From IMG/VR virus record IMGVR_UViG_3300037501_000241: a stretch of DNA of 64,000 nt. One strand, 5' to 3'. The position numbers and the translations under genes were made by a program. Numbering within the stretch: position 1 is the first letter of the stretch; every line of letters begins with the position of its first letter. Below, one piece after another: positions 23,997-26,711 of the stretch. The DNA comes from a virus. Under the pieces are notes generated by a model, which was not told where the DNA came from, made no database searches, and worked only from the letters and a program-made list of their open reading frames with translations.

Positions 23997-24626
23997 ATGA
24001 CACTCATACAAGAAAAATTAAAAAAATATAGAGAAAACATTTTAAAAGAAGCGGGATATGACTTAACAAATGAAAATGTCCGTGATTGCGCTAAATATGC
24101 CAAACTTGAAAATCTTAAATTGTTAATTGAGAATAAATGTGATTTAACAGATTATAATGTCCGTGATTGCGCTGAATATGCTAATCTTGAAAATCTTAAA
24201 TTGTTAATTGAAAATAAATACGATTTAACAAATGAAAATGTCCGTTATTGCGCTAAATGCGCCAAACTTAAAAATCTTAAATTCTTAATTGAGAATAAAT
24301 GTGATTTAACAGATTATAATGTCCGTGATTGCGCTGAATATGCTAATCTTGAAAATCTTAAATTGTTAATTGAGAATAAATGCGATTTAACAAATTATGA
24401 TATTCGTTATTACACTGAGCGCGCCAACCTTGAAAATCTTAAATTGCTAATTGAGAATAAATACGATTTAACAAATGAAAATGTCCGTTATTGCGCTAAA
24501 TATGCCAATCTTGAAAATCTTAAATTGCTAACTGAGAATAAATATGATTTAACGGATGAAAATATTTGGTATTGCGCTCTCTATGCCGATATAGATTTTA
24601 TTAAGAAAGAGCTTTTAATCAAATAA
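23997..24626 (+). CDS. Ankyrin-like 27-aa repeat protein 1 (7 repeats)
   Basis: 20-aa N-cap plus 7 x 27 aa = 209 aa. Confidence 0.9.
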   Translation: MTLIQEKLKKYRENILKEAGYDLTNENVRDCAKYAKLENLKLLIENKCDLTDYNVRDCAEYANLENLKLLIENKYDLTNENVRYCAKCAKLKNLKFLIENKCDLTDYNVRDCAEYANLENLKLLIENKCDLTNYDIRYYTERANLENLKLLIENKYDLTNENVRYCAKYANLENLKLLTENKYDLTDENIWYCALYADIDFIKKELLIK

Positions 24627-24641
24627 ATAAAATATAACATT

Positions 24642-25271
24642 ATGACACTCATACAAGAAAAATTAAAGACATATAAAGAAAATTTATTAAAAGAAGCAGG
24701 ATATGACTTAACAAATGAAAATGTCTATTATTGCGCTGAATATGCTAAACTTGAAAATCTTAAATTGCTAATTGAGAATAAATATGATTTAACAAATAGT
24801 GATGTCCATTATTGCGCTAAATATGCCAAACTTGAAAATCTTAAATTGTTAATTGAGAATAAATACGATTTAACAAATGAAAATATCCGTTATTGCGCTG
24901 AATATGCTAATCTTGAAAATCTTAAATTCTTAATTGAAAATAAATGTGATTTAACAGATTATAGTATCCGTTATTGCGCTGAATTCGCCAAACTTGAAAA
25001 CCTTAAATTCTTAATTAAGAATAAATATGATTTAACAAATAGTAATGTCCGTTATTGCGCTAAATGCGCCAATCTTGAAAATCTTAAATTACTAATTGAA
25101 AATAAATGCGATTTAACAAATAGTAATGTCCGTGATTGCGCTAAATGCGCCAAATTTGAAAATCTTAAATTCTTAATTGAGAATAAGTGCGATTTAACAG
25201 ATGAAAATATTCGTTATTGCGCTCTCTATGCCGATATAGATTTTATTAAGAAAGAGCTTTTAATCAAATAA
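24642..25271 (+). CDS. Ankyrin-like 27-aa repeat protein 2 (7 repeats)
   Basis: 20-aa N-cap plus 7 x 27 aa. Confidence 0.9.
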   Translation: MTLIQEKLKTYKENLLKEAGYDLTNENVYYCAEYAKLENLKLLIENKYDLTNSDVHYCAKYAKLENLKLLIENKYDLTNENIRYCAEYANLENLKFLIENKCDLTDYSIRYCAEFAKLENLKFLIKNKYDLTNSNVRYCAKCANLENLKLLIENKCDLTNSNVRDCAKCAKFENLKFLIENKCDLTDENIRYCALYADIDFIKKELLIK

Positions 25272-25286
25272 ATAAAATATAACATT

Positions 25287-26237
25287 ATGACAATACAAGA
25301 AAAATTAAAAAAATATAGAGAAAACATTTTAAAAGAAGCGGGATATGACTTAACAAATGAAAATGTCCGTGATTGCGCTAAATATGCCAAACTTGAAAAT
25401 CTTAAATTGTTAATTGAAAATAAATACGATTTAACAAATGAAAATGTCCGTTATTGTGCTGAATATGCTAATCTTGAAAATCTTAAATTGCTAATTGAGA
25501 ATAAATACGATTTGACAAATGAAAATATTCGGTATTGCACTAAATATGCTAAACTTGAAAACCTTAAATTCTTAATTGAAAATAAATGTGATTTAACAGA
25601 TTATAATGTCTATTATTGCGCTGAATATGCTAATCTTGAAAATCTTAAATTGCTAATTGAGAATAAATATGATTTAACAAATTATGATATTCGTTATTAC
25701 GCTGAGCGCGCCAACCTTGAAAATCTTAAATTGCTAATTGAGAATAAATATGATTTAACAAATAGTGATGTCCGTTATTGCGCTAAATGCGCTAAACTTG
25801 AAAACCTTAAATTCTTAATTGAGAATAAATGTGATTTAACAGATTATAATGTCTATTATTGCGCTGAATATGCTAATCTTGAAAATCTTAAATTGTTAAT
25901 TGAAAATAAATACGATTTAACAAATTATGATATTCGTTATTACGCTGAGCACGCCAACCTTGAAAATCTTAAATTGCTAATTGAGAATAAATACGATTTA
26001 ACAAATGAAAATATCCGTTATTGCGCTGAATATGCTAAACCTGAGAATTTTAAATTTTTAATTAAGAATAAATATGATTTAACAAATAGTGATGTCCGTT
26101 ATTGCGCTGAATTCGCCAAACTTAAAAACCTTAAATTCTTAGTTGAGAATAAATATGACTTAACAAATAAAAATGTCCGTTATTGCGCTAAATATGCTGA
26201 TATAGATTTTATTAAGAAAGAGCTTTTAATCAAATAA
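25287..26237 (+). CDS. Ankyrin-like 27-aa repeat protein 3 (11 repeats)
   Basis: 19-aa N-cap plus 11 x 27 aa = 316 aa. Confidence 0.9.
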   Translation: MTIQEKLKKYRENILKEAGYDLTNENVRDCAKYAKLENLKLLIENKYDLTNENVRYCAEYANLENLKLLIENKYDLTNENIRYCTKYAKLENLKFLIENKCDLTDYNVYYCAEYANLENLKLLIENKYDLTNYDIRYYAERANLENLKLLIENKYDLTNSDVRYCAKCAKLENLKFLIENKCDLTDYNVYYCAEYANLENLKLLIENKYDLTNYDIRYYAEHANLENLKLLIENKYDLTNENIRYCAEYAKPENFKFLIKNKYDLTNSDVRYCAEFAKLKNLKFLVENKYDLTNKNVRYCAKYADIDFIKKELLIK

Positions 26238-26252
26238 ATAAAATATAACATT

Positions 26253-26711
26253 ATGACACTCATACAAGAAAAATTAAAGACATATAAAGAAAATTTATTA
26301 AAAGAAGCAGGATATGACTTAACAGATGAGAATATCCGCTATTGCGCTGAGTGCGCCAGCCCCGAAAATCTTAAATTCTTAATTGAAAATAAATGTGATT
26401 TAACAGATTATAATATCCGTTATTGCGCTAAATATGCCAAACTTGAAAACCTTAAATTCTTAGTTGAGAATAAGTGCGATTTAACAAATGAAAATATCCG
26501 TTATTGCGCTGAGCACGCCAATCCCGAAAATCTTAAATTCTTAATTGAGAATAAGTGCGATTTAACAAATGAAAATGTTCAGTATTGCGCTCTTTATGCT
26601 GATATAGATTTTATTAAGAAAGAGCTTTTGAATACGGAAGATACATTAGTTCCCGGCAATGAGATAGAAATAACCGTAAATGGCAAGACAATAAAAGCGG
26701 TGATTAAATAA
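26253..26711 (+). CDS. Ankyrin-like 27-aa repeat protein 4 (4 repeats plus unique C-terminal tail)
   Basis: Same caps; ends EIEITVNGKTIKAVIK. Confidence 0.9.
   Translation: MTLIQEKLKTYKENLLKEAGYDLTDENIRYCAECASPENLKFLIENKCDLTDYNIRYCAKYAKLENLKFLVENKCDLTNENIRYCAEHANPENLKFLIENKCDLTNENVQYCALYADIDFIKKELLNTEDTLVPGNEIEITVNGKTIKAVIK

Follow-up and report, generated by a model that had tools for sequence, protein, structure and literature searches.

Four tandem ankyrin-repeat genes built from capped, hairpin-less 27-residue units in a small tailed phage

The IMG/VR virus record IMGVR_UViG_3300037501_000241 carries, at positions 23997-26711, a tandem array of four ankyrin-repeat (ANK) genes, which we investigated within a 64,000-nt stretch of the record (hereafter the window). 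The window corresponds to ~1.5 turns of a circular 42,364-bp genome: its first 2 kb recur 42,364 nt further on, the list of open reading frames (ORFs) repeats with an equal offset, and positions 1-21636 are duplicated at 42365-64000. The virus is a tailed phage with a GC content of ~33%, whose genome encodes a large terminase (TerL), tail-fibre-like proteins, a primase/helicase and two DNA methyltransferases; no tRNA genes were found in it. Its TerL reaches at most 27-29% identity to that of any known or cultured phage, and a single public sequencing run, a freshwater metagenome, contains the phage sequence.

The array consists of four head-to-tail ORFs on the + strand with 7, 7, 11 and 4 units of a 27-aa/81-nt repeat, 29 in total. 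ORF calls, Tandem Repeats Finder (TRF; a single 81-nt array at 24056-26591 with 31.5 copies and a score of 2090) and splitting at the invariant DLT anchor agreed on this layout. Splitting resulted in a constant 27-aa spacing, with the last unit of each gene forming a hybrid with the C-cap; unit positions are numbered below from the DLT aspartate (D1). Gene 1 (23997-24626, 209 aa, isoelectric point (pI) 5.1) comprises N-cap A, six internal units and a C-cap unit, gene 2 (24642-25271, 209 aa) N-cap B and 7 units, gene 3 (25287-26237, 316 aa) N-cap A and 11 units, and gene 4 (26253-26711, 152 aa) N-cap B and 4 units. The N-caps thus alternate A-B-A-B (KKYRENIL/KTYKENLL), and a 12-aa C-cap, YADIDFIKKELL, is common to all four genes. 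Identical 15-nt spacers without a Shine-Dalgarno motif separate the genes (24627-24641, 25272-25286 and 26238-26252, + strand). Gene and unit numbers, spacer, N-cap alternation and shared C-cap had all been reported in a preliminary description made from the sequence alone, and all were confirmed.

Two long exact repeats link the genes on the + strand. A 125-nt tract covering N-cap A and the start of unit 1 is common to genes 1 and 3 (24006-24130 = 25293-25417), and a 126-nt tract spanning the C-cap, the spacer and N-cap B recurs at the gene 1/2 and gene 3/4 junctions (24588-24713 = 26199-26324). Gene 4 is the only one with an extra 23-aa C-terminal tail (DTLVPGNEIEITVNGKTIKAVIK) after the shared C-cap. 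Within 26634-26711, gene 4 shares the common ...KKELLIK ending except for its last two residues and then continues into this tail, which looks β-strand-rich and has no counterpart in genes 1-3 or in the environmental family members described below.

The encoded repeats belong to the ANK superfamily, as the preliminary description had suggested. Judged by the Pfam gathering cut-offs (22.7 bits for Ank_4, 27.3 bits for Ank_2), genes 1-3 exceeded the Ank_4 threshold with 34.8, 46.1 and 61.5 bits, respectively, and genes 2 and 3 that of Ank_2 with 27.9 and 28.9 bits; gene 4 remained just under the Ank_4 cut-off (21.6 bits). An AlphaFold2 model of the gene 2 protein, predicted from a single sequence (pLDDT 66), displayed regular pairs of 9-residue helices. 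In the modelled unit, helix 1 covers positions 4-12, a turn 13-15 and helix 2 16-24, followed by a loop from 25 to position 3 of the next unit. Foldseek, a comparison also proposed in the preliminary description, assigned all of the top 50 PDB matches of this model to ANK proteins or designed ankyrin repeat proteins (DARPins), the best being 4o60 with a TM-score of 0.73.

A phmmer alignment of the unit to the designed ANK protein 4o60 (E = 2e-5) placed a 6-residue gap exactly at the β-hairpin. Features of the canonical 33-residue ANK repeat are accordingly missing: the unit has 27 residues, the hairpin is absent and (N)-V-R-Y stands in place of TPLH. What remains is an ankyrin repeat lacking both the β-hairpin and the TPLH motif. 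Searched exhaustively with phmmer, 1.84 billion cluster representatives yielded 1,463 matches, 151 of which were stored; a 27-aa period dominated in 101 of these 151, mostly unnamed metagenomic proteins. Since this period is common among the stored matches, the short unit marks a known ANK subclass rather than an exclusion from the superfamily. The best-matching designed structure (4o60, ANK-N5C-317) likewise has near-consensus internal units between caps; it differs in its 33-aa unit, in the hairpin positions 2, 3 and 5 that are absent here, in the replaced TPLH motif and in having Ala where the phage proteins have core Cys.

All four proteins are acidic (pI 4.9-5.7) and contain 8-12 cysteines at positions occupied by Ala in canonical ANK repeats. 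Their N-termini, MT(L)IQEKLKxYxENxLKEAGYD, are charged and predicted to be helical, and inspection revealed no hydrophobic leader or signal peptide in them. These properties fit cytoplasmic proteins. A Pfam scan detected no F-box/PRANC or other effector domain, its only matches being of ANK type apart from DUF6240, which scored above its cut-off on the N-cap and first unit of all four proteins. An NCBIfam scan produced sub-threshold noise only.

Variation among the units is restricted to a subset of positions. Counted from D1, the variable positions are 4, 5, 6, 7, 8, 9, 12, 13 and 15, which matches the list in the preliminary description after correction for a one-position numbering offset. 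The 25 internal units do not differ at positions 1-3, 14, 18, 20, 22, 25 and 26. Entropy is highest at positions 13 (Y/C/R/F/H), 5 (E/Y/S) and 15; five residue types occur at position 13 and two at position 12. Positions 5, 8, 9, 12 and 13 are spaced as i, i+3, i+4, i+7, i+8 and would thus lie on one face of helix 1. In the 4o60 alignment, unit positions 5, 12 and 13 are equivalent to positions 33, 13 and 14, which are randomised in DARPins. Both position entropy and this alignment place the variable residues on the canonical ANK recognition surface, in agreement with the preliminary description: on the modelled unit, variation concentrates on one helix 1 face and the preceding loop, corresponding to the recognition groove. 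Consistently, the 29 units comprise 26 distinct helix-1 segments and 13 distinct helix-2 segments. A diversity-generating retroelement had been dismissed as the source of this variation in the preliminary description, and we agree: no reverse transcriptase family matched among ORFs of at least 300 aa, and the differences between units involve all four bases, codon 13 alone occurring as TAT, TGC, CGC, TTC and CAC.

Selection differs between the two classes of positions. Nei-Gojobori ω reached 0.63 in the variable set compared to 0.15 in the scaffold, and the codon-state counts shifted from 11 nonsynonymous to 15 synonymous in the scaffold to 16 to 6 in the variable set (Fisher p = 0.045). On the recognition face, constraint is clearly relaxed or selection is diversifying; the elevated ratio at variable sites nevertheless stays below 1. 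The pN/pS values of collinear paralogs were low (0.22 for units 1-5 of genes 1 and 3, 0.27 for genes 2 and 4): the paralogs are under purifying selection and the genes are maintained. Residues 21 and 27, in helix 2 and the loop, were associated across the internal units (24060-26558), with L21 paired with Y27 and F21 with C27 (counts 11, 8, 3 and 3; Fisher p = 0.017). This association could reflect compensating core packing or two linked helix-2 haplotypes.

The array lies inside a tightly packed + strand block (22993-27711) with intergenic gaps of 5-95 nt and no terminator-like site within it. Two sigma70-like promoter candidates, both predicted by a consensus scan on the + strand, are situated upstream of the block: the best one, TTGACA-17-TAAAGT, at 22544..22572 (10/12 matches), and a second at 22731-22759. 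Replication, recombination and methylase genes precede the block, which occupies the far end of their arm and is convergent with the late tail operon. Other genes of the block include those for an acidic 81-aa protein, a membrane protein and a Cys-rich helix-turn-helix-like protein, and small accessory ORFs flank the array.

Taken together, we consider it somewhat better than even (probability roughly 0.55) that the locus is a paralog repertoire of early/middle, cytoplasmic ANK binders, each with a distinct groove and with host proteins as the likeliest targets, in the service of takeover or counter-defence. Each gene would yield a soluble, acidic, signal-less solenoid of 4-11 compact 27-aa repeats closed by N- and C-caps. 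The ANK genes, located distally on the early/middle + strand arm, would probably be co-transcribed with the small accessory genes, and their four products would most likely act in the cytoplasm of the infected cell as stoichiometric binders. Because the residue differences map to the ANK recognition groove, these proteins most likely bind different partners.

Several points weigh against this interpretation. At no position set does ω exceed 1, so that positive selection on the surface is not demonstrated, and the fold model derives from one sequence with a pLDDT of only 66. Neither PADLOC, which returned nothing, nor PHROGs, with short and repeat-driven matches, gave a functional hint. The sole run containing the sequence may be the source sample and thus does not constitute independent support. 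Finally, the nearest relatives in both sequence and fold come from eukaryotes and giant viruses, which would also fit a eukaryote-directed role.

To place the array among known proteins, we compared it with several collections. The comparison with related phages proposed in the preliminary description was unproductive: no relative was detected among 50,697 cultured phages (megablast and tblastn), in IMG/VR scanned with an ANK gene, a tail protein and TerL, or in two scans of metagenomes from the Joint Genome Institute. Among proteins, the closest sequence matches were 25-40% identical and had a period of 27-28 aa. Among 5.8 billion proteins, a word-indexed search retrieved two giant-virus-like ANK proteins only, and the nearest clusters by language-model features belonged to Nucleocytoviricota and Chlorophyta. 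In the database of viral models (BFVD), all of the top 50 matches to the gene 2 model were giant-virus ANK proteins. Six ordinary 27-aa matches that we scanned all carried Pfam ANK domains, with three cap-bearing members at or below the cut-off.

The cap-bearing proteins form a small environmental family (P0006, P0011, P0041, P0044 and P0065, from loci L031-L033) with 37-58% identity to the phage proteins. They share the N-cap EKLKxYR..L...AGYDL and the 27-aa unit, and P0006, P0011 and P0041 also share the C-cap (G/D-I-E/D-F-IK); in the word-indexed search, P0011 used as query found only itself. The family resides on short, phage-like, AT-rich contigs (24-29% GC) with small genes lacking Shine-Dalgarno motifs. 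It differs from the array in occurring as single genes of 2-7 units on contigs of 0.5-4.8 kb, without tandem arrangement and without any other gene common to this phage. No other tandem array of the cap-sharing subfamily was found.

Short-period ANK proteins are also encoded by green algae and giant viruses (for example Mimivirus L59/R840, Pandoravirus, Cedratvirus and Bodo saltans virus) and resemble those of the array in their ANK fold without a long hairpin. They differ in that their viruses infect eukaryotes, in lacking the N- and C-caps seen here and in often being much longer or fused to other domains. Bodo saltans virus has 148 ANK genes, mostly in directional tandem and with 4-17 repeats each, which have been read as an arms-race 'genomic accordion' (PMC5871332); the phage has only four, in a 42-kb genome. 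With such accordion families (poxvirus ANK/PRANC, giant-virus arrays), the locus shares directional tandem paralogs, variable unit number and duplicated tracts, but not a C-terminal F-box/PRANC or other effector domain. Phages, too, are known to carry such genes: ANK domains have been reported in 418 IMG/VR phage contigs (bioRxiv 10.1101/608950). The ANK genes of Ankyphages and of Wolbachia phage WO are, like those described here, accessory genes of tailed phages. Our proteins differ from them in having no leader and forming four tandem paralogs, and searches of IMG/VR and of cultured phages revealed no sequence relationship. In the literature, we found no phage ANK counter-defence protein. 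Hence, phage ANK genes as such and directional tandem ANK families with variable repeat number in giant viruses are already known; new is a capped, hairpin-less 27-aa subfamily that is absent from PHROGs and amplified to four genes in a small tailed phage without relatives in the collections searched.

These affinities raise the alternative that the bacterial host of the phage lives in association with a protist or animal, possibly inside its cells, and that this eukaryote is what the ANK proteins act upon, in the manner of ANKp and the WO proteins. The giant-virus and algal neighbours in the feature and BFVD comparisons, the 27-aa period prevalent among mostly unnamed metagenomic matches and the very AT-rich contigs of the family members would all agree with it, and a precedent has been demonstrated in Ankyphage ANKp, which acts on eukaryotic cells (bioRxiv 10.1101/608950). 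However, two Ankyphage ANK proteins possess N-terminal signal peptides (bioRxiv 10.1101/608950), whereas no signal peptide or recognisable secretion signal was seen here. Their high cysteine content and the origin of the sample, a free freshwater metagenome, also argue against it, and 30-40% identity between near-consensus repeats can be convergent. We regard this alternative as unlikely.

The sequence relationships between units and genes allowed us to reconstruct the history of the array. Gene 3 is collinear with gene 1 over units 1-5 (84-98% nucleotide identity) and then contains extra units, of which 7-8 duplicate units 4-5. The recurrence of whole units noted in the preliminary description holds at the protein level; in DNA, the recurring copies are 96-97.5% identical and no two units are the same. 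Mean unit identity was 84.5%, and dS among units was ~0.4. Inside the gene pairs, pS amounted to 0.20-0.39, as opposed to the exact 125-126-nt gene ends. Among units, 57% of informative site pairs were incompatible, and a permutation test of the pairwise homoplasy index (PHI) type gave p < 0.0002, a value inflated by linked sites within codons. The simplest sequence of events begins with duplication of an A-B gene pair, continues with gain and loss of whole units and ends with gene conversion that homogenises the gene ends while the interiors diverge. As the units are on average only 84.5% identical, with none identical and dS of ~0.4, the locus history fits slow birth-and-death combined with gene conversion, not rapid shuffling or an active library.

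An active diversifying library, in which frequent unequal recombination, perhaps promoted by the Sak4-like annealase and exonuclease, keeps generating new unit orders and numbers, had been the central proposal of the preliminary description. Only its historical half stands: whole-unit insertions and deletions, the 125-126-nt tracts and the PHI-type signal attest to past unequal recombination and gene conversion among 29 homologous 81-nt units in direct orientation. A library operating at present is distinctly unlikely given the divergence of the units and the purifying selection on the paralogs. Furthermore, the longest exact tracts lie at gene ends and not between internal units, and the contigs of the only run, which drop rare variants, contained no alternative letters, indels or joints. 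The annealase (18929-19792) and the exonuclease (19797-20429) are indeed encoded nearby, ~4 kb upstream of the array, as had been described. Such modules are common in phages, though, and nothing beyond presence in the same genome ties this one to the locus. The related notion of a miniature 'genomic accordion', in which recombination among the 81-nt units, possibly via Sak4/exonuclease, tracks variable host targets such as defence proteins within populations, is in our view similarly doubtful; if it held, the array would be a bacterial-virus counterpart of the ANK host-range families of poxviruses and giant viruses as well as a natural minimal DARPin-like scaffold.

ANK domains serve as chaperones or adaptors in other systems, and 1.1 kb separate the array from the 3' end of the convergent late structural operon. 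The ANK proteins might accordingly bind the phage's own proteins, for instance as chaperones or adaptors in assembling the large tail or fibre proteins encoded in this operon. We find this more doubtful still: the array is located on the early/middle strand outside the structural operon, a conserved self-partner would hardly call for four diversified paralogs, and the single-copy family members elsewhere lie among small non-structural genes.

A four-gene array could also arise as an assembly artefact from a locus with a single gene or another unit order, a concern already voiced in the preliminary description. The array is highly repetitive, it is present in one sample only, and its longest exact repeats (126 and 125 nt) fall just below the typical maximum k of 127. 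With no exact repeat of at least 127 nt, however, large-k assembly is unambiguous. The contigs of the run are short and cannot verify unit order, but they covered every bin at at least 99% identity without conflicting joints. Unique pieces of genes 1, 2 and 3 had depths of 10.3, 12.4 and 11.3, compared to ~11 in the flanks, and the shared N-cap pieces reached 24-28, about twice the flanks, which fits four distinct genes at phage copy number. Since all four ORFs are, in addition, intact, in frame and regularly capped, we judge an artefact very improbable. One contig of the same run matches only 23981-24014 (34 nt: spacer and first codons of gene 1), with unrelated sequence on both sides; it may stem from a further gene of this community with a common N-cap start.

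Least probable of all are TALE-like nucleic-acid readers, an option raised in the preliminary description. In favour are the modular units with two adjacent hypervariable residues each, positions 12-13, which would serve as the code. Against it, the proteins are acidic, the top 50 PDB matches include no TALE, PUF or HEAT fold, and position 12 offers just two residue types beside the five at position 13.

ANK repeats lend themselves to binding many different proteins. Giant viruses, poxviruses and intracellular bacteria are characterised by large tandem ANK families, which have been read as arms-race repertoires; a compact array of four capped, near-consensus proteins in a tailed phage of 42 kb suggests that phages, too, employ diversified repeat binders against their hosts. 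The locus provides four candidates for host-takeover or counter-defence screens, and the hairpin-less 27-aa unit with its natural caps constitutes a smaller natural analogue of DARPins that may be useful to protein engineers.

Further features of the genome were recorded alongside the array. A foreign origin of the array, suggested by its low GC content (26%), was considered and rejected: the low value mostly reflects amino-acid composition (GC at second codon positions 0.20), and GC at third codon positions (0.20-0.30) lies within ~1 sd of other phage genes. Throughout the phage, Shine-Dalgarno-like motifs, even weak ones, precede only 4 of 46 checked start codons, and leaders are A/T-rich. 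The sigma70-like pattern TTGACA-N16-18-TANNNT occurs 10 times in the window compared to 3.7 expected, several copies having an extended -10 element, while a Bacteroidota-type promoter motif is not enriched (2 observed, 5.3 expected).

Two genes upstream of the array within the same block showed peculiarities of their own. The ORF at 23244-23642 encodes a Phage_VG64 (PF25682) protein with a lipobox-like N-terminus, labelled recombination directionality factor in PHROGs. Phages and prophages of widely separated bacteria (Devosia, Ideonella, Bordetella, Nocardia, Pseudonocardia, Psychromonas and metagenome-assembled genomes of Saccharibacteria) carry genes 58-78% identical to it, an unusually strong conservation for a phage accessory gene. 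With hosts ranging from Devosia to Nocardia and Saccharibacteria, the gene gives no host clue, and none of its 30 IMG/VR and 11 bacterial loci contains an ANK gene or any other gene common to this phage. The first gene of the array-containing operon, an 81-aa ORF at 22993-23238 without Pfam or PHROG match, is built in part from 4.5 tandem heptads of the form LFGDCS[NG]; the underlying 21-nt repeat spans 23072-23166 (TRF score 141-179).

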